From a phage, in sequence record NC_105619.1: a DNA stretch of 48,980 bases; one strand, 5' to 3'. The translations under genes and the position numbers were made by a program. The notes beneath the pieces are model-generated. The model was not told the origin of the DNA and ran no database searches. It saw only the letters and a program-made list of their open reading frames with translations. Positions 4,225-21,837 of the stretch are shown piece after piece (the stretch's first letter is position 1; every line of letters starts with the position of its first letter).

Positions 4225-5337
4225 ATGAAGGCAAAGCAAAGATTCGATTCAGTAAAAATCAAGGCGCACTTTGATGATAACGGTTTTTTAGTTGACCGCC
4301 CAATCGTGGCGCGAATCGGCGCTCAGGTTTACAAAACGCCGCACGGCGATCGAGTTGAGTTCCGTCCGGCGTCCGAAGTTTTCAAGCAAGACTCCTTGCA
4401 AAGTTTTGCGGGGAAGCCAATTACTGTCGGTCACGTAACGGTAACTCCGCAGAATGCTAAGGACGTTGTTGTCGGGTCGTGTGCTGGCGCTGGTATTGCT
4501 TCAGGGGTTGGCGTTGAAGTTCCTTTGAGTATTTACAGCGACTACGCGATCAGCAAGGCTAAAGCAAAAGAAGCAGGCGAATTATCTGTTGGTTATACTT
4601 CGGTTGATATTGATAAGCCTGGTTGGGGTTCAAATGAGACTGGAGAATATATCTTCGAAGAGGATATGAAACAGGACGAAGCTCCGCCTGAAGGTTGGGT
4701 TAAATTTGACGCGGTACAGACCAATATCAAGGTCAATCATATTGCCCTAGTATTCAAAGGTCGTGCTGGAATTGCTAAATTAAATCTTGATGCCGAACAG
4801 GAATTTCCGTATGATAATAACGTTCAATCAACCAACGAGGACAAGCAGATGAAAAAAATTAAGATCGATTCAGTTGATGTGGAAGTAACCGAAGACGTTG
4901 CGAACCATATCGAAAAGTTAACCGCACAGATCGCTACCATTCAGGGCAAAGCTGACGGCTTCGAAGCAGAACGTGACGCGCTCAAGGTCAAGGTTGACTC
5001 TCTGCCGGAACTGGTAAAAGCAGAAGTGGAGAAGCAGAAAGCTGACGCAGCCGCACGCGCAGAAGTCACCGCAGTAGCAGAAACCGCAGGCGTTAAGCAT
5101 GACGGCCTTGAAATCAAAGACGTTAAGATCGCTGTTGTAAAAGCAATGCTGGACAAAGATGTGAGCGAAAAATCTGATGCATACATCGACGCTATGTTTG
5201 ATGTTGCTAAGGATTCTGATATTATGGCTATTCAGCGTAAAGCGGTAAAAGGCGACTCTATCGAAGACGGCAAGCCGGAAGAGAAAAACGACGCCGCACC
5301 TGTTACGCCAAATTCACGTTTAAGCAAAGTAATGTAA
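4225..5337 (+). CDS. capsid scaffolding protein (putative)
   Basis: Start at internal ATG with AGGAGA RBS; C-terminal Ala/Glu/Lys-rich coiled-coil-like region; position between head morphogenesis and capsid genes. Confidence 0.5.
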   Translation: MKAKQRFDSVKIKAHFDDNGFLVDRPIVARIGAQVYKTPHGDRVEFRPASEVFKQDSLQSFAGKPITVGHVTVTPQNAKDVVVGSCAGAGIASGVGVEVPLSIYSDYAISKAKAKEAGELSVGYTSVDIDKPGWGSNETGEYIFEEDMKQDEAPPEGWVKFDAVQTNIKVNHIALVFKGRAGIAKLNLDAEQEFPYDNNVQSTNEDKQMKKIKIDSVDVEVTEDVANHIEKLTAQIATIQGKADGFEAERDALKVKVDSLPELVKAEVEKQKADAAARAEVTAVAETAGVKHDGLEIKDVKIAVVKAMLDKDVSEKSDAYIDAMFDVAKDSDIMAIQRKAVKGDSIEDGKPEEKNDAAPVTPNSRLSKVM

Positions 5338-5348
5338 GGAGAAAAATT

Positions 5349-5825
5349 ATGGCACAGATTAACGCATCTTATCAGCGCGATATGGCGATCGCCCTTCCGG
5401 GTATGGTTGCAGATACTTCCAAGTACAACATCGACGGCGCTTGTGTCGTTAACGAAGGTGATGTTTTTGTTGGTGCTGCTGTTCAGGTTGTCCAGGCTCA
5501 GGCTGTTGATGGTCATAAACTTGTTAAGGCTATGGAAGCGTCTAAAGTACCGTACGGCGTAGCGATTCGTTCTCACTGGCAGACTGCCAACGCTCAAAAC
5601 CAGATGGTTTATGAAGAAGGCGGTGCAATCAACGTCATGACCTCCGGGCGAGTCTGGATGCTTTCCAAATCAGAAGAAGCACCAACTTTCGGAACCGCCG
5701 TTAAACTTGACGTTGACGGTCAAGAGAAATCTGATGGCACGATTGAAACTGCCTGGACTTACGCTGGCGGCTGGACTAAATACAAAGATATTCAGCTTGT
5801 AGAAGTTCAGTTGCATCAACTGTAA
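5349..5825 (+). CDS. capsid decoration-like protein, paralog 1
   Basis: N-terminus (..ALPGMVADTSKYNIDGACVV..GDV.VGAAVQVV) is paralogous to the N-terminus of the next ORF. Confidence 0.45.
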   Translation: MAQINASYQRDMAIALPGMVADTSKYNIDGACVVNEGDVFVGAAVQVVQAQAVDGHKLVKAMEASKVPYGVAIRSHWQTANAQNQMVYEEGGAINVMTSGRVWMLSKSEEAPTFGTAVKLDVDGQEKSDGTIETAWTYAGGWTKYKDIQLVEVQLHQL

Positions 5826-16644: not shown

Positions 16645-19600
16645 ATGATTCAAAAAGTGATAAGTGGATCTAAGGGTGGGTCACAGAAGCCTCATAACCC
16701 AGTTGAGATGGAAGACAATCTAATCTCAATCAACAAAATCAAAATCCTGTTAGCTGTATCTGATGGTGAAATTGACGAAACATTCAGCCTAAAGCAGTTG
16801 ATGTTTAACTCAGTTCCGGTGCAAAACGAGGATGGATCGTTCAACTTCGAAGGGGTAAAGGCTGAGTTCAGGCCGGGAACTCAGACGCAGGAATACATCA
16901 AGGGCATGGAAGATAGCTCCAGCGAGGTAACTGTAAATCGTGAGGTTACTACCGATAACCCATACACGATCTCAGTAACCAACAAAACGCTGTCGGCAAT
17001 CCGTATAAAAATGTTCATGCCTCGCGGCGTACGAATTGAAAGTAACGGTGATAAAAATGGCGTAAGAGTTGAGTATGAGGTGCAACAAGCTGTTGATGGC
17101 GGCTCGTTTGAGACGGTGCTCACCGATGTAATCGAAGGCAAAACAATGTCAGGTTACGATCGAAGCCGTCGCGTAAACCTTCCGAACTTCAACAATCAGG
17201 TAATATTCAGAGTTGTTCGAAAGACTCCAGACTCTAACGACTCTAACGTTGTTGATGCGATCCAGGTAAAGAGCTATGCCGAGGTGATTGATGCCAAATT
17301 CCGTTACCCTCTGACAGGTCTTCTTTTCGTCGAGTTCGACTCGAAGATGTTCCCAAACCAGTTACCTACGATCTCAATTCGTAAGCGCTGGAAGATTGTA
17401 AACGTTCCATCAAACTACGATCCGGAATCACGAACCTACAACGGCAATTGGGATGGGACTTTCAAGAAGGCGTGGACTAACAACCCGGCATGGGTTCTAT
17501 ACGACCTGATGATTAATCAGCGCTACGGGCTGGATCAGAAGGAGCTTGGAATCTACGTCGATAAATGGGCGCTCTATGAGGCGGCGCAATATTGCGACCA
17601 GATGGTTCCCGACGGGAAAGGTGGTACGGAGCCTCGCTACCTTTGCGACGTGATAATTCAGTCACAGACTGATGCGTACAAGGTGATTCGAGATATTTGC
17701 TCAATATTCCGTGGTATGAGCTTCTGGAATGGTGAAAGCATCTCGGTAATCATCGACAGACCGCGTGAGCCTGCGTACATCTTCACTAACGACAACGTTG
17801 TTAATGGTGACTTCTCCTATACGTTCGCAAGCGAAAAGAGTATGTACACGACGTGTAACGTGATGTTTGACGACGAACAAAACATGTATCAACAGGACGT
17901 TGAGCCAGTATTCGATCGTGAGGCGACTCTGCGGTTCGGTAATAACGTAACCAGCATTACAGCGATAGGTTGCACGCGTCGAAGCGAGGCTAACCGACGA
18001 GGGCGATGGATTCTGAAGACCAACCTTCGCAGCACTACGGTAAACTTCGCGACCGGGCTTGAGGGTATGATCCCGACAATAGGTGATGTTGTGGCAATAG
18101 CCGACAACTTCTGGTCAAGCAACTTGACTATGAACCTGTCAGGGCGCTTGCTCGAAGTGTCTGGAAGCCAGATTTTCTTGCCGTTCCGGGTGGATGCGCG
18201 CGCAGGTGACTTTATTATCGTAAATAAGCCAGATGGCAAGCCCGTGAAGCGCACAATCTCAAGTGTTAGTGCGGATGGTAAGACTATAGAGATTAACATC
18301 GGATTTGGATTTCCTGTGAAGCCTAACACGGTATTCGCTATCGACCGCACCGACATTGCGTTACAACAGTACGTCGTGACAAAAATCGATAAGGGCGATG
18401 ATGACGAGGAATTTACCTACAAAATCACGGCGGTGGAGTACGATCCTAACAAGTACGATGAGATTGATTACGGAGTTAACATCGACGACCGACCGACGAG
18501 CATCGTTGAACCAGATCAGATCCCTAGACCGGAAAATGTTCAAGTATCCTCAGAGTCGAGAATCGTCCAGGGGATGAGCGTAGAAACGATGATTGTTAGC
18601 TGGGATAAAGTGCCGTACGCAGTTTTCTATGACGTACAGTGGCGAAAGGATAACGGCAACTGGCAAAATGTACCTCAGACGGCAAACAAAGAGGTTTACG
18701 TTGAGGGTATTTACGCTGGCAACTATCAGGTTCGCGTTCGCTCCGTAGCTGGTTCCGGTACGACTTCAGGATGGTCAAATATCGTAGCTGCGACGCTGAC
18801 TGGCAAGCAAGGTGAGCCGGGTCGACCGATTAACCTTACAGCTACGGATGATGTTGTTTTTGGTATCCGTACAAAATGGGGGTTCTCTGATGGTTCTGGA
18901 GATACGGCCTATACAGAGTTGCAACAGTCACCAGATGGAACAGTGGATAACGCAAGTTTGCTTTCTTTGATTCCGTACCCGCAGCATGAGTATTATCACT
19001 CACCGATGCCTGGAGGGAATATTGTGTGGTATCGTGTAAGGACGGTTGATAGGATCGGTAACGTGTCTCAGTGGACTGATTTTGTCAGAGGTATGGCATC
19101 AACAAACGTTGACGATATCATTGGGGAGATTTCTGTCGATATCGAAAACTCGCCGGGTTACGAGTGGCTTGTTGATAACGCAACCGACAACGCGGCGCAG
19201 AACGCAGCTAACGCAGAGGCAGCAATAGAAAACGCGCTCGCCAATGACAAAGACGCGATCTACATGAAGAAGGAGAACGGAAAACGAAAAGCTGAGTACA
19301 CGAAATCACTGAAACTTATTGCTGATGAGACGCAGGCGAGAGTGACGGCGATCGAGCAATTGAAGGCAAGTTTTGGCGATCAGATTAGCGCTAGCAACAG
19401 CGAATTGCGTGAAGTTATCGCAACTGAGACTGGAGCGCTATCGCGTGAAATTGACCAACTCAGGGCAGAGATTGGTGATGATATCCAGGCAAGTTTGACT
19501 GATATCAGAGAGGCTATAGCAAACGAGACTGAGGCGAGAACGCAAGCTGACTTGTCGTTAAGCGCGAGGCTTGGGAATAATGAGGCAGCACTTTCTCAAA

Positions 19601-20094
19601 AACTTGATTCGTGGAGCAATGCGGATTCGACTGGTGCAATGTACGGCGTCAAGCTCGGTCTGAAGTATAACGGCCAAGAATACAGTGCAGGCATGGCTAT
19701 GTCTCTGATTGGTTCCGGAGCTGCGGTTAAGGCGCAGATTTTGTTTGAGGCATCACGATTTGCCATCATGACTGGAATGAATGGTCAGACTCAGTATCCC
19801 TTCGTTGTTGAGAATGGCCAGGTTATTCTAAGTAGCGCGATCATCAAGGATGGATTTATTACTAACGCCATGATTGGTAACGCGATTCAGTCTAACAATT
19901 GGGATGGAAATCAAGGGTGGTATATTAACAAGAATGGTGCAGCTTACTTCATGAACGCAACCGTAAGGGGTGCTTTGTATGCAGATAACGGATCGTTTGC
20001 ATTCAACGGGACAAACAATACGGTTCAGATAAACAATAACGGCATCACGGTTAACCTACCTAACGGGGGCCGAGTGGTTGTTGGTGTCTGGTAA
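16645..20094 (+). CDS. central tail fibre / host specificity protein (lambda gpJ-like)
   Basis: 1149 aa; fibronectin-III-like segment (..YDVQWRKDNGNWQNV..YQVRVRSVAGSG..); last large gene of tail operon. Confidence 0.85.
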   Translation: MIQKVISGSKGGSQKPHNPVEMEDNLISINKIKILLAVSDGEIDETFSLKQLMFNSVPVQNEDGSFNFEGVKAEFRPGTQTQEYIKGMEDSSSEVTVNREVTTDNPYTISVTNKTLSAIRIKMFMPRGVRIESNGDKNGVRVEYEVQQAVDGGSFETVLTDVIEGKTMSGYDRSRRVNLPNFNNQVIFRVVRKTPDSNDSNVVDAIQVKSYAEVIDAKFRYPLTGLLFVEFDSKMFPNQLPTISIRKRWKIVNVPSNYDPESRTYNGNWDGTFKKAWTNNPAWVLYDLMINQRYGLDQKELGIYVDKWALYEAAQYCDQMVPDGKGGTEPRYLCDVIIQSQTDAYKVIRDICSIFRGMSFWNGESISVIIDRPREPAYIFTNDNVVNGDFSYTFASEKSMYTTCNVMFDDEQNMYQQDVEPVFDREATLRFGNNVTSITAIGCTRRSEANRRGRWILKTNLRSTTVNFATGLEGMIPTIGDVVAIADNFWSSNLTMNLSGRLLEVSGSQIFLPFRVDARAGDFIIVNKPDGKPVKRTISSVSADGKTIEINIGFGFPVKPNTVFAIDRTDIALQQYVVTKIDKGDDDEEFTYKITAVEYDPNKYDEIDYGVNIDDRPTSIVEPDQIPRPENVQVSSESRIVQGMSVETMIVSWDKVPYAVFYDVQWRKDNGNWQNVPQTANKEVYVEGIYAGNYQVRVRSVAGSGTTSGWSNIVAATLTGKQGEPGRPINLTATDDVVFGIRTKWGFSDGSGDTAYTELQQSPDGTVDNASLLSLIPYPQHEYYHSPMPGGNIVWYRVRTVDRIGNVSQWTDFVRGMASTNVDDIIGEISVDIENSPGYEWLVDNATDNAAQNAANAEAAIENALANDKDAIYMKKENGKRKAEYTKSLKLIADETQARVTAIEQLKASFGDQISASNSELREVIATETGALSREIDQLRAEIGDDIQASLTDIREAIANETEARTQADLSLSARLGNNEAALSQKLDSWSNADSTGAMYGVKLGLKYNGQEYSAGMAMSLIGSGAAVKAQILFEASRFAIMTGMNGQTQYPFVVENGQVILSSAIIKDGFITNAMIGNAIQSNNWDGNQGWYINKNGAAYFMNATVRGALYADNGSFAFNGTNNTVQINNNGITVNLPNGGRVVVGVW

Positions 20095-20096
20095 CA

Positions 20097-20123
20097 GAAA
20101 GGGGCCGATTGGCCCCTTTTTTT
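20097..20123. terminator. bidirectional rho-independent terminator between convergent genes
   Basis: A-run, GGGGCC-gatt-GGCCCC, T7 run. Confidence 0.75.
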
Positions 20124-21078
20124 AATACATGTTCGGAGTGAAAGGAATTGGCATTGAAATGTTTATATTGAAGGGGAATCGCGCTCCGCTTTGGGTGGAA
20201 TAGTTACCTACTCTTGTTCCGGGGGCGCTTCTCACGTTACCGCCGCTCATACACACGCCCTTGTATCGAATGTTATTATATCCACCTGTAACTCTGCATA
20301 TTGTACCAGTTCTAAGTATTGGGAAAAATCCACCACACCACTGCCACCCGTCATTTATCGCCATAGTCCCACCGAGAACAAAAGGACGTCGAACGCTTGA
20401 GAAAACGATCTGACCAGCAGGATTGCTCATAGTGATTCCGGGGCCGGGAGGTGGTGGGGTGTTATTAAATATTACGAGTTGAACGTATACGCTCGCGCCA
20501 ACGTCATCAATACCGTTATAGTTTGCGTCTCTGCACCATATTGTATTCCCGTCAGATTCCAGTGTTACATTTGGGTTATCCCACATACCGAAAGGAACAC
20601 CCTGGACTGGCAACTGAGCCTGACCGTTAACTTGGATACCTCCAACAAATGCCGCGCTCATCAACCTGGCGTTATTCGGTATCGCCGCGAAGTTCGTTGA
20701 ATCGCTAACAAGTATCCCCTGATTTCCAGCCTGAGCGGGGAGAATTTCGTAACAGTTGCCATAAAACCTCATCCTTCTTCCACCATGACCGTTAAAATTA
20801 CCTACCGTTATTCTCCCGGTTGAATCATTAACCTTCTGAAAGCTGGTTAAATAATACACCTCCGGGATGTAATCCATGTCGTCTATGTAGATAGCCTGAG
20901 ATGGAAGGCAAAAAGCGGTAGATCCTGGACTCATTTGCAGACCAAAATCAAAAACCGATCCAGATGAATCAACCCCGTCCGCTTGTATTGGTCCGCACCA
21001 TGACGGGGCGCGAAGTCCCGAGGTTATCTCCATTGCCGGACGACCGTCATTTAGATTTATGTATATTCCTTGTCCCAT
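20122..21078 (-). CDS. hypothetical Gly/Asn-rich protein co-transcribed with cor (possible receptor-binding / adhesin-like protein)
   Basis: Start moved to ATG (residue 4 of track ORF); overlaps cor stop; Gly/Asn/Ser-rich with PPPPGPG linker; no signal peptide. Confidence 0.4.
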   Translation of the reverse strand: MGQGIYINLNDGRPAMEITSGLRAPSWCGPIQADGVDSSGSVFDFGLQMSPGSTAFCLPSQAIYIDDMDYIPEVYYLTSFQKVNDSTGRITVGNFNGHGGRRMRFYGNCYEILPAQAGNQGILVSDSTNFAAIPNNARLMSAAFVGGIQVNGQAQLPVQGVPFGMWDNPNVTLESDGNTIWCRDANYNGIDDVGASVYVQLVIFNNTPPPPGPGITMSNPAGQIVFSSVRRPFVLGGTMAINDGWQWCGGFFPILRTGTICRVTGGYNNIRYKGVCMSGGNVRSAPGTRVGNYSTQSGARFPFNINISMPIPFTPNMY

Positions 21079-21080
21079 AA

Positions 21081-21311
21081 TTACCACTCTTTAGTTTTGA
21101 TTGATACCTTTCCGCTGAAGTTACCCTGATCGTCGTCGGATGACAGACCTTTGAATCGCATATCGATTTCGCCAGCCGGAACCTTCTTACCGTCAACGAA
21201 TCGCATCATGCAAGATCCGTAAGCGTAAGTAACGCAGTCTCCATTTTTAAGATTCTGAGCGCAACCAGTCAGGATAAATGCAGCAGCAATAATGGTGATT
21301 AACTTTTTCAT
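21081..21311 (-). CDS. cor: Cor-like superinfection-exclusion lipoprotein
   Basis: 76 aa; signal peptide MKKLITIIAAAFILTGC with lipobox LTGC; size and position next to tail genes as for cor/llp-type lipoproteins of FhuA-dependent phages. Confidence 0.55.
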   Translation of the reverse strand: MKKLITIIAAAFILTGCAQNLKNGDCVTYAYGSCMMRFVDGKKVPAGEIDMRFKGLSSDDDQGNFSGKVSIKTKEW

Positions 21312-21337
21312 TTGTATGTCCTCGTTGTTAGTGTGAT

Positions 21338-21366
21338 TGCATTGTATGTCTCATTTACTTTTATTG
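21338..21366 (-). promoter_or_regulatory. sigma70-like promoter for cor operon (TTGCAA-N17-TACAAT on minus strand)
   Basis: Read on minus strand upstream of cor ATG. Confidence 0.5.
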
Positions 21367-21778
21367 CAATAGCACGATTACAATTTTTTCGTGTAACTGG
21401 TGTCTATTTTTGTAACCGGAAGTGGTGTTACAAAATCCACCCCATCCGACCGCAGAGGGATATGATAAAAACTCTATATAATATATATAGATAGATAATA
21501 TTTAATTTTAGCTTTATATATATAATTATTGTTGTGTAACAGTTGTCTATCGTGTAACTGGTGATTTGATTGATTCGTCAAATTTCTATCATATATGTTC
21601 AAAATTTAATCAATATGGATTCTACTTGTAGCTATCTCTGTATTTCTAAGAAAAAGCGGTTACAAGTATTACACAGTAGACATCACACAAAAATAGACTT
21701 AAGCCATTGATTCCGTTAATGCTGGTTGTAACTTGAGCGATATAGACACGCTATTACACATCAATTACATGTATCCGA

Positions 21779-21806
21779 TTGACTAAACGCTGTTAATGGC
21801 TATAAT
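21779..21806 (+). promoter_or_regulatory. near-consensus sigma70 promoter (TTGACT-N16-TATAAT) for recombination operon
   Basis: TTGACT 21779-21784, TATAAT 21801-21806, ~30 nt upstream of RBS AAGGAGA. Confidence 0.6.
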
Positions 21807-21837
21807 GGATTCATCGTAAACGAAGGAGATAAACGCA

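Follow-up and report, generated by a model that had tools for sequence, protein, structure and literature searches.

A predicted LptD-type host-recognition module in the T1-like backbone of an SH6-group Tunavirus

Results

We studied a window of 48,980 nucleotides (sequence record NC_105619.1), which belongs to a T1-like phage, i.e., a Tunavirus from the pSf-2/SH6/Shfl1 group. Downstream of its gpJ-like tail gene, a two-gene cassette encodes a 76-aa lipoprotein and a 318-aa protein. Based on homology, we consider it very probable (about 85%) that this cassette is an LptD-type host-recognition module of small siphophages within a T1-like (Tunavirus) backbone. The initial annotation had left three options for the larger protein, namely a receptor-binding protein (RBP) paired with its lipoprotein, a second exclusion factor, or something else. 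Homology to experimentally characterised proteins strongly supports an RBP with a cognate exclusion lipoprotein; the other two options are unsupported. Cassettes of this kind are already described in small T1-like phages, i.e., the finding is real and ordinary, and it opens no new biological question.

Gene organization of the locus

Both ORFs were found at the positions given in the initial annotation, which also correctly described the cassette as running opposite to the tail operon (both ORFs on the minus strand, gpJ on the plus strand). The features of the locus are as follows.

16645..20094, plus strand: gpJ-like central tail fibre / tail tip protein of 1149 aa, putative docking platform of the RBP (Pfam Phage_Tail_Tip, FNIII-A_GpJ, Phage-tail_3; PHROG 31 central tail fiber J)
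19899..20094, plus strand: last ~65 codons of gpJ, C-terminal tip swapped relative to T1 (T1 blastn homology ends at 19898)
20097..20123, both strands: bidirectional hairpin resembling an intrinsic terminator, located between gpJ and the RBP gene, which converge here (GGGGCC-loop-GGCCCC stem at ~20099-20118)
20122..21078, minus strand: RBP of 318 aa, DUF6453 family (Rtp44 / Oekolampad RBP type), predicted LptD binder (Pfam, PDB sequence match, AF2/Foldseek, identity to OzMSK RBP and SH6 ORF49)
21081..21260, minus strand: mature domain (residues 18-76) of the predicted superinfection-exclusion lipoprotein, Rtp45 family (PF24052, PDB 9RPS chain D, conserved motifs)
21261..21311, minus strand: signal peptide and lipobox Cys, MKKLITIIAAAFILTGC, identical to T1 Cor (blastn and alignment to T1)
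21341..21369, minus strand: candidate sigma-70 promoter for the lipoprotein-RBP operon (TTGCAA-17-TACAAT, 9/12 consensus matches only)

The lipoprotein ORF (21081-21311, minus strand, 76 aa) begins with MKKLITIIAAAFILTGC. Its TAA stop codon (21083-21081) is located 2 nt upstream of the RBP's ATG such that the two genes abut, in contrast to the overlap that had been proposed. A purine-rich, SD-like AAAGAGTGG is found within the last lipoprotein codons ahead of the 318-aa ORF. While this ORF starts further upstream, with a GTG at 21087, in the mechanical ORF list (321 aa), we use the ATG as start because the homologues, including the solved Oekolampad RBP, begin at the equivalent MG.GI.

Next, we compared the codons of the cassette with SH6. 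Here, 8 synonymous and 2 non-synonymous changes are observed for the 318-aa gene and 2 and 0, respectively, for the lipoprotein gene. Since the substitutions are mostly synonymous, both ORFs are real genes under purifying selection. Within the RBP gene, there are also plus-strand ORFs of 50-73 aa, which we treated as spurious antisense frames.

The RBP gene and gpJ are convergent with 27 nt between their stop codons. The hairpin in this region folds stably on both strands, i.e., with -19.5 kcal/mol followed by U7 on the plus strand and with -17.9 kcal/mol followed by UUUCUGUU on the minus strand (z scores about -3.0 and -3.6, respectively), which agrees with the bidirectional terminator suggested initially. 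It was revealed by direct folding; a simple terminator pattern scan gave no match at 20097-20123. Rogue1 carries an annotated terminator at the equivalent position. The candidate promoter lies just upstream of the lipoprotein gene in T1-homologous DNA that is ~93% identical to the region upstream of T1 cor.

The 318-aa protein is a member of the DUF6453 family

The 318-aa protein matches Pfam DUF6453 with 423.7 bits (E 4.7e-127; gathering cut-off 25 bits), where residues 4-295 cover profile positions 1-291 of 291, as well as PHROG 1265 (E 1.7e-126). In the PDB, its residues 1-318 align to residues 1-321 of 9RPT chain C, the Oekolampad RBP on LptDE (E 5.9e-67). Structure prediction, which the initial annotation had named as a check, leads to the fold of the same LptDE-bound protein. 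That is, the AF2 model (pLDDT 85.4, pTM 0.84) is matched by Foldseek to 9rpt_C with E 1.3e-20, a TM of 0.73 (query-normalised) or 0.90 (target-normalised) and an rmsd of 2.6 A. No other PDB fold was significant in this Foldseek search, the next best having an E of 0.37.

Among its relatives, the RBP is 99.4% identical to SH6 ORF49 and 68.1% identical to the OzMSK RBP at 100% coverage. Global pairwise alignments over the full length give 42% identity to the RBP of Bas01 and 43% to those of Bas19 and BF9. OzMSK, with its OzMSK/Rogue1-type RBP (Rogunavirinae), is the closest relative with experimental receptor data: it is LptD-dependent, with no infection of either of two lptD loop mutants (Black et al. 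2025, PMC13035648). For Bas01 and Bas19, resistant mutants map to lptD (PMC8594841). SH6 ORF49 is listed as a predicted LptD RBP (PMC13035648). Our literature search for experimental LptD dependence of SH6-type Tunaviruses found none, with SH6 being named only as 'predicted LptD-dependent' (PMC13035648).

The protein resembles the Oekolampad (Bas18) RBP solved on Shigella flexneri LptDE (PDB 9RPT/9RPW/9RQI; Dunbar et al., PNAS 2025, PMC12685063), Rtp44 and the Bas01/Bas02 RBPs in its DUF6453 family, length, collinearity and predicted fold. The Oekolampad/Rtp44/Bas01 group also shares the locus directly after gpJ and the GpJ tip type (tips compared: Bas01 75%, BF9 57%). It differs by an identity of 29% to the Oekolampad RBP (Foldseek, modelled part of 9RPT chain C) and by its genomic background, i.e., Oekolampad-type RBPs are found in Dhillonvirus or Braunvirinae phages, whereas we are dealing with a Tunavirus for which LptDE binding is predicted. 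In the study of the Oekolampad RBP, AF3 did not place this protein correctly (PMC12685063).

Other assignments of the protein were considered as well. Both an enzyme and a generic trimeric fibre or adhesin were rejected given that Pfam provides DUF6453 alone and that 9RPT_C is the only PDB fold relative. The initial annotation had stated that a well-characterised enzyme unrelated to adsorption would speak against its reading; this case did not arise, the homology being to an RBP family. As to the adhesin or fibre-tip-like character suggested there, homology assigns the protein to a family of tail-tip RBPs. RefSeq labels the protein 'membrane protein' and PHROG 1265 reads 'moron ... membrane protein'. 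We dismissed this label, too, since the protein has no hydrophobic segment and its homologue is a soluble RBP. The maximum Kyte-Doolittle value of a 19-residue window is 0.99, and there is no signal peptide.

The composition had been described as rich in Gly, Asn and Ser. Compared to the long ORFs of the window, we find Gly (13.2% vs. 7.2%) and Asn (8.5% vs. 4.8%) to be enriched, while Ser is not (7.2% vs. 6.8%); Pro is at 7.5% vs. 3.7%. The reported PPPPGPG is present at residues 208-214. It is part of the family-conserved motif FNNTPP..G.GITM, in which F204, P209, G214 and N219 are invariant in the family alignment. Furthermore, residues 1-25 (the N-terminal base) are nearly invariant across DUF6453, and variable regions that differ from Oekolampad-type RBPs span residues ~27-110 and ~235-310. 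According to Black et al. (PMC13035648), the RBP residues with absolute conservation lie in the base and not in the loops predicted to contact LptD; these loops form three groupings, which may differ in how they bind.

The lipoprotein combines a T1 Cor signal peptide with an Rtp45-type mature domain

The lipoprotein matches PF24052 with 87.3 bits over residues 3-76 (gathering cut-off 27 bits) and chain D of PDB 9RPS, i.e., Rtp45, with E 1.1e-9. Its mature domain matches the Rtp45-like protein of Bas01 with E 2e-10. The reported lipobox LTGC is present in the signal peptide, Cys26/Cys34 align with the Cys30-Cys38 disulfide of Rtp45, and both the hairpin motif VPAGEIDMRF (family VPAGE(I/V)D(M/V)R(F/Y)) and the C-terminal KEW are conserved. 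Identities amount to 71% for the lipoprotein of Dhillonvirus BF9 and to 36-37% for the Rtp45-like proteins of Bas01 and Rogue1. For Rtp45, an LptDE-bound structure and an exclusion mechanism have been described (PMC12685063). With Rtp45 on LptDE(M) (PDB 9RPS), the lipoprotein shares PF24052, lipobox, Cys pair, hairpin motif, KEW and a gene directly upstream of the RBP gene. In contrast to Rtp45, it has the signal peptide of T1 Cor, its mature identity to the Rtp45-like protein of Bas01 is ~36%, and its binding and exclusion are predicted.

The initial annotation had assigned the lipoprotein to the cor/llp type. The 17 N-terminal residues are indeed the same as in T1 Cor, and the lipoprotein resembles Cor because of this identical signal peptide. 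The PHROG Cor match (E 6.4e-6) is restricted to residues 1-33, and the mature lipoprotein shows no significant similarity to mature T1 Cor (E 0.058 over 8 residues). Vice versa, T1 Cor scores 17.7 against PF24052 and is thus below the cut-off of 27. A PDB sequence search up to E 1 returned Rtp45 (9rps_D) and one chance match and no Llp chain, although Llp is represented in the PDB (8A60). Membership in Cor was therefore rejected given the unrelated mature domains, as was membership in Llp given the PDB search, and the family label is replaced by Rtp45. This also alters the receptor that the label implied, i.e., the homology of RBP and lipoprotein predicts LptD and not FhuA.

What remains of the comparison with T1 Cor plus gp22/gp23-like proteins and T5 Llp plus pb5 is the layout, in which a dedicated RBP is accompanied by a small lipoprotein that disables one receptor from its periplasmic face. 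The mature proteins are unrelated to T1 Cor and T5 Llp, and the receptor is FhuA there and predicted to be LptD here. Also the described modes differ: Llp uses long-range allostery on a TonB-dependent transporter, Rtp45 the physical displacement of an LptD loop (PMC12685063).

Module exchange relative to T1

Homology to T1 (blastn) breaks at 19898 and resumes at 21261. Without its last 100 residues, gpJ is 99% identical to T1 GpJ. For the last 60 aa, the identity is 31% to T1 but 82% to Rogue1, 75% to Bas01, 62% to SPN3UB and 53-57% to Bas19 and BF9 (BF9 57%), each of these phages having an RBP gene of the DUF6453 family. Judging from these alignments, the GpJ tip type co-varies with the RBP type. 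Independently, the GpJ C-terminal tip has been reported as specificity-associated (bioRxiv 10.64898/2026.04.02.716166). The right-hand junction is the codon of Cys17: in the nucleotide alignment, identity with T1 extends through ...CTGACTGGTTGC and divergence follows directly after.

In T1, this slot holds the N15 gp22/gp23-like genes (ST32, ST31) and Cor; signal peptide and DNA upstream of T1 cor match the window. No counterpart of the gp22/gp23-like genes is present in the window, where the DUF6453 gene fills the slot on the opposite strand. That is, T1 has genes reading in the direction of gpJ at the RBP position, whereas the respective gene of the window is convergent with gpJ. T1 homology ends at the lipobox Cys codon and ~65 codons before the gpJ end, which therefore mark the limits of the exchanged module. 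By this sequence comparison, it comprises the GpJ C-terminal tip, terminator, RBP and mature lipoprotein, in place of T1's FhuA-type module.

A lipoprotein-then-RBP pair convergent on gpJ is also found in Rogue1, Bas01 and BF9. In Salmonella phage SPN3UB, the RBP homologue is co-directional between J and the tail-fibre gene, with no lipoprotein annotated adjacent. Rogue1 and the window share ~69% nucleotide identity from the J tip through the terminator into the RBP gene, of which the 3' two-thirds are covered. The lipoprotein, in contrast, falls into the Dhillonvirus subtype (71% to BF9) rather than the Rogue1/Rtp45 subtype (mature domain 37% to Rogue1), while RBP and GpJ tip show 69%/82% identity to Rogue1 and 43%/57% to BF9. 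The cassette itself is therefore mosaic, given a Dhillonvirus-subtype lipoprotein beside a Rogue1/OzMSK-type RBP.

The structure of the genes, their families, the similar fold, the synteny, the junctions of the mosaic and the purifying selection were observed directly. A possible, though on balance doubtful, extension is a three-way mosaic of T1 Cor signal peptide/promoter, Dhillonvirus-type exclusion domain and Rogunavirus-type RBP with matching GpJ tip, implying independent exchange. If so, LptD-targeting phages could swap their exclusion lipoprotein and their RBP separately, given that the two act on one receptor from opposite faces, and the lipobox Cys codon would be a recombination joint that swaps exclusion specificities between FhuA- and LptD-type modules. 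In a stronger version, the SH6-type RBP tip would bind LptD in a mode unlike that of Oekolampad.

Proposed mechanism and alternative explanations

For LptD as target, binding modes, virion location and expression timing, we infer from homologues. The RBP would attach non-covalently to the GpJ-like central fibre, namely to its distal end, through the conserved N-terminal RBP base (residues 1-25) and the co-exchanged C-terminal ~65 residues of GpJ. The other end of the RBP would enter the LptD barrel of the LptDE lipopolysaccharide translocon at the extracellular mouth. By analogy to the Oekolampad RBP, which binds an open LptDE state, this contact would cause irreversible adsorption and trigger DNA ejection. 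The lipoprotein would be exported and lipidated at Cys17. Since Ala and no Asp is found at +2, it probably ends up in the outer membrane, on the inner leaflet. On the periplasmic side of LptDE, its beta-hairpin may be pushed up the LptD lumen, in analogy to Rtp45, and displace extracellular loop 4 of LptD such that RBPs of DUF6453 type could not bind. The infected cell would thus be safe from superinfection, and progeny would be kept from adsorbing to debris. Both genes are presumably co-transcribed leftward from the T1 cor-type promoter, translationally coupled and ended at the hairpin shared with gpJ. The RBP is expected in few copies per virion.

The same RBP and exclusion family could recognise another outer-membrane protein in the SH6-type allele, e.g., the FhuA that T1 uses or a target specific to Shigella. 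The T1-like backbone, the infection of a T1 host strain by SH6, the RBP's identities of only 42-43% to Bas01/Bas19 and 68% to OzMSK, and the location of conserved residues at the base rather than at the receptor-contacting tip are compatible with this. On the other hand, LptD-dependent members of the DUF6453 RBP family are as low as 36-37% identical to one another, such that 68% is well within the family spread. Furthermore, the FhuA, BtuB, YncD and LptD specificities at this locus correspond to four unrelated protein families with no within-family exception reported. Given that exactly T1's FhuA module (gp22/gp23-like genes and Cor) is replaced and that the accompanying lipoprotein belongs to the LptDE-binding Rtp45 family, we consider another receptor improbable. 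The initial annotation and, with its '45% identity to T1 Cor', the SH6 paper implied a FhuA-blocking, true orthologue of Cor, which would account for signal peptide, genomic position, promoter region and the PHROG match. This reading has the least to recommend it since that match ends at residue 33, the mature domains are dissimilar and the significant match is to Rtp45-type proteins, with T1 Cor itself failing the PF24052 cut-off.

The 318-aa protein might also be absent from the virion, i.e., be a membrane-associated moron or second exclusion factor that is expressed together with the lipoprotein. The PHROG 1265 and RefSeq categories fit this picture, as does the transcription of its gene alongside an exclusion gene and opposite to the tail operon. 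In addition, LC-MS/MS of the SH6 virion detected 11 proteins, among which ORF49 is absent (PMC5238451 Table 2). Since SH6 ORFs 44, 46 and 47 (minor tail/tail proteins in RefSeq) are likewise missing from that list, this absence is weak evidence. Lacking signal peptide and hydrophobic segment, the protein does not look membrane-associated; its SPN3UB homologue is placed among co-directional tail genes without an annotated lipoprotein neighbour, and the GpJ tip co-varies with its presence. A non-virion role is thus very unlikely, and we prefer the LptD-type host-recognition module.

Implications

The practical value lies in correct annotation and receptor prediction. At this locus, the phage and roughly 30 close relatives (SH6, Shfl1, pSf-2, Sfin phages, phi2457T and others) are labelled 'membrane protein', 'hypothetical protein' or 'lipoprotein'. 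Such phages are easily presumed to use FhuA like T1, while the evidence predicts LptD, i.e., an outer-membrane protein that is both essential and conserved. This prediction matters for designing phage cocktails that target Shigella and E. coli and for the expected routes of resistance; fhuA (tonA) 'T1-resistant' laboratory strains would be unprotected. Finally, the mapped junctions, i.e., ~65 codons before the gpJ end and the lipobox Cys codon, are natural boundaries at which receptor swaps could be engineered into T1-like phages.

Gene structure and genomic context

The cassette is a known LptD-type module, i.e., a receptor-binding protein (RBP) gene plus an exclusion gene (Maffei 2021, PMC8594841; Black 2025, PMC13035648; Dunbar 2025, PMC12685063), in a Tunavirus background (T1-like, Drexlerviridae). 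The window shows about 92-94% nucleotide identity over 24 kb to the Shigella phages pSf-2, SH6 and Shfl1 as well as the Sfin phages, and the cassette is located between the gene of the central tail fibre and the RecE/Erf recombination genes. Respective features are:

16645-20094: gpJ-like central tail fibre gene
~20099-20118, both strands: terminator-like hairpin
20122-21078, minus: ORF of the 318-aa protein, ATG start at 21078
21081-21311, minus: ORF of the lipoprotein precursor, 76 aa
21369-21341, leftward: sigma-70-like site, 9/12 matches, within T1 cor-homologous DNA
21779-21806, rightward: strong sigma-70-like site (TTGACT-16-TATAAT), 11/12 matches

Both minus-strand ORFs were found where the initial annotation had placed them. 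The ATG at 21078 is the correct start of the 318-aa gene, because homologues including the Oekolampad RBP begin with MG.GI...NDGRP. The two genes had been described as overlapping; the lipoprotein stop codon TAA lies 2 nt upstream of this ATG, and thus the genes abut, with an SD-like purine-rich stretch within the final lipoprotein codons. The proposed bidirectional terminator folds well on both strands when folded directly, while a simple pattern scan gave no hit for this hairpin. Compared to SH6, we find 8 synonymous and 2 non-synonymous substitutions in the 318-aa gene and 2 versus 0 in the lipoprotein gene. Both genes are real and under purifying selection.

The 318-aa protein belongs to an LptD-binding family

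The 318-aa protein is a full-length member of the Pfam family DUF6453 (E 4.7e-127). A PDB sequence search returned one relative, namely chain C of 9RPT/9RPW/9RQI (E 5.9e-67, residues 1-318 on 1-321). This chain is the Oekolampad (Bas18) RBP, resolved by cryo-EM while inserted in the open-state Shigella flexneri LptDE translocon (PMC12685063). An AlphaFold2 model computed from 34 family members is all-beta (pLDDT 85.4, pTM 0.84), and Foldseek reports 9rpt_C as its sole significant match (E 1.3e-20, target-normalised TM 0.90; next match E 0.37). In the model, PPPPGPG (residues 208-214, inside a motif conserved across the family) sits in a coil, flanked by strands 196-205 and 216-218. With regard to the composition, described earlier as Gly/Asn/Ser-rich, we find Gly and Asn (and also Pro) to be enriched but not Ser, and no hydrophobic segment was found in the protein. 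RefSeq (SH6, Shfl1, pSf-2 and others) and PHROG 1265 label the RBP family 'membrane protein' with the category 'moron, auxiliary metabolic gene and host takeover'. For the product of 20122-21078 we reject this label, which conflicts with the solved structure of the homologue and the absent hydrophobic segment.

Among relatives with experimental receptor data, the OzMSK RBP is the closest (68.1% identity, 100% coverage); OzMSK does not infect two lptD loop mutants (PMC13035648). The RBPs of Bas01 and Bas19, for which resistance maps to lptD (PMC8594841), are 42-43% identical. A 2026 preprint (bioRxiv 10.64898/2026.04.02.716166) distinguishes four unrelated protein families at the RBP locus, each specific for FhuA, BtuB, LptD or YncD, and the 318-aa protein fits its definition of the LptD family. 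Black et al. have already included the SH6 counterpart, ORF49 (99.4% identity), in their list of 'predicted LptD-dependent' RBPs together with a model; they locate the conserved RBP residues at the base and not at the predicted contact loops (PMC13035648). ORF49 was not detected by LC-MS/MS of SH6 virions (PMC5238451), and the literature searched on SH6-type phages yielded no direct receptor experiment. Family members also occur frequently in chromosomes of Escherichia, Salmonella and Citrobacter, where they presumably belong to prophages. SPN3UB, a temperate Salmonella phage, has the RBP gene co-directional between J and a tail-fibre gene, which fits a structural role. The cassette proteins are 99% identical to GenBank entries, and the literature already names the predicted LptD binder.

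The lipoprotein combines a Cor signal peptide with an Rtp45-type domain

The lipoprotein matches Pfam PF24052 ('Phage lipoprotein family') with 87.3 bits (cut-off 27), and a PDB search found Rtp45 only (9RPS chain D, E 1.1e-9), which phage Rtp uses for superinfection exclusion (PMC12685063). On the periplasmic side of LptDE, Rtp45 binds between LptE and LptM; its hairpin reaches up the LptD lumen and extracellular loop 4 is displaced by up to 20 Å, such that RBP binding is blocked (PMC12685063). Cys26 and Cys34 of the lipoprotein align with the Cys30-Cys38 disulfide of Rtp45, and both the VPAGE(I/V)D.R(F/Y) motif and the C-terminal KEW motif are kept.

Residues 1-17 (MKKLITIIAAAFILTGC) are identical to T1 Cor. 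T1 nucleotide homology extends from the recombination genes via the intergenic region into the signal-peptide codons and ends exactly after the lipobox Cys codon (21263-21261). The mature domain is unrelated to mature T1 Cor (E 0.058) but significantly similar to the Rtp45 type (E 2e-10), so the cor/llp-type family label of the initial annotation has to be replaced. T1 Cor itself scores under the PF24052 cut-off, and the PHROG Cor match is limited to residues 1-33. Accordingly, the '45% identity to Cor' given in the SH6 paper (PMC5238451) largely reflects the shared signal peptide. Compared to T1 Cor and T5 Llp/pb5, the cassette follows the same logic with different families.

Boundaries of the exchanged module

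The left limit of T1 homology is 19898, about 65 codons ahead of the gpJ stop. Over its body, GpJ shares 99% identity with T1, compared to 31% over the last 60 residues. For the latter, we observe 82% identity to Rogue1, 75% to Bas01, 62% to SPN3UB and 53-57% to Bas19 and BF9, every one of which has a DUF6453 RBP. This agrees with the preprint, which associates the GpJ C-terminal tip with receptor specificity, possibly via RBP compatibility (bioRxiv 10.64898/2026.04.02.716166). T1, in contrast, carries in the same slot two plus-strand genes (N15 gp22/gp23-like) and Cor, i.e., an FhuA-type module. Because T1 homology breaks on both sides, the exchange unit comprises GpJ tip, terminator, RBP and mature exclusion domain (window 19899-21260). 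Within this unit, the best matches of RBP and GpJ tip are of the Rogunavirus type (69% and 82%), and that of the mature lipoprotein is of the Dhillonvirus type (71% to BF9 vs. 37% to Rogue1). By these sequence comparisons, the cassette itself is mosaic. The exact junctions and this internal mosaicism are our small additions to the known module.

Shigella phage pSf-1 (KC710998, 44573-45526) encodes an RBP 97.5% identical to that of the window, while at the DNA level its similarity to the locus is lower and breaks off sooner (86%, query 1-1442). It exemplifies horizontal cassette transfer in which the right-hand junction differs and lies directly upstream of where the lipoprotein begins.

Proposed mechanism

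By homology, the lipoprotein would, after export, receive its lipid anchor at Cys17 and probably be directed to the outer membrane (Ala at +2), where it would block LptDE on the periplasmic face. The RBP, docked on the GpJ tip by its conserved base, would engage the LptD barrel from the cell exterior. The two genes apparently form one leftward operon from the sigma-70-like site at 21369-21341 to the shared hairpin.

Relatives and control region

Nonagvirus Bas19 (ChristophMerian) has a DUF6453 RBP gene without an annotated lipoprotein gene beside it, the gap between RBP and lateral tail-fibre gene (4385-4500 of the comparison locus) being just 116 nt. Likewise, the SPN3UB RBP gene (4501-5460 of its locus), co-directional with J, is without annotated lipoprotein neighbour. 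Thus, the exclusion partner is not obligatory at this locus.

Matches to the mature lipoprotein domain (34-48% identity) are also found in Gordonclarkvirinae podophages (~69-79 kb), i.e., EP335 (NC_070979, 3941-4222 of the comparison locus), Bas87, Bas90, Bas93, ECBP2, SGF2 and MN03. The EP335 gene, surrounded by small early-region genes, clearly belongs to the Rtp45 family (PF24052 E 3.5e-36) and keeps the Cys pair, VPSGEIDMRY and KEW. In the BASEL 2025 paper, these phages are treated as dependent on O-antigen, and no target is given for their short tail fibres. Given the presence of a lipoprotein gene of the LptDE-blocking type, LptD may serve them as terminal receptor or be an exclusion target.

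Five short unannotated GenBank records of 1.5-3.6 kb (OR844656, OR844657, OR844733, OR845207, OR845214; named 'Escherichia phage ECO103 4-12-1', 'EC22.5-2' and 'ECO104 4-5-2') match the window at the locus with 99.8-100% identity and are nearer than any complete genome. The window may thus stem from this set of isolates, which was propagated on E. coli O103, O104 and ATCC 25922.

Finally, the 526-bp AT-rich intergenic region between the leftward cassette and the rightward exonuclease gene (21312-21837) is ~93% conserved compared to T1. Besides the strong rightward sigma-70-like site, it contains several weaker leftward ones and looks like a divergent control region.
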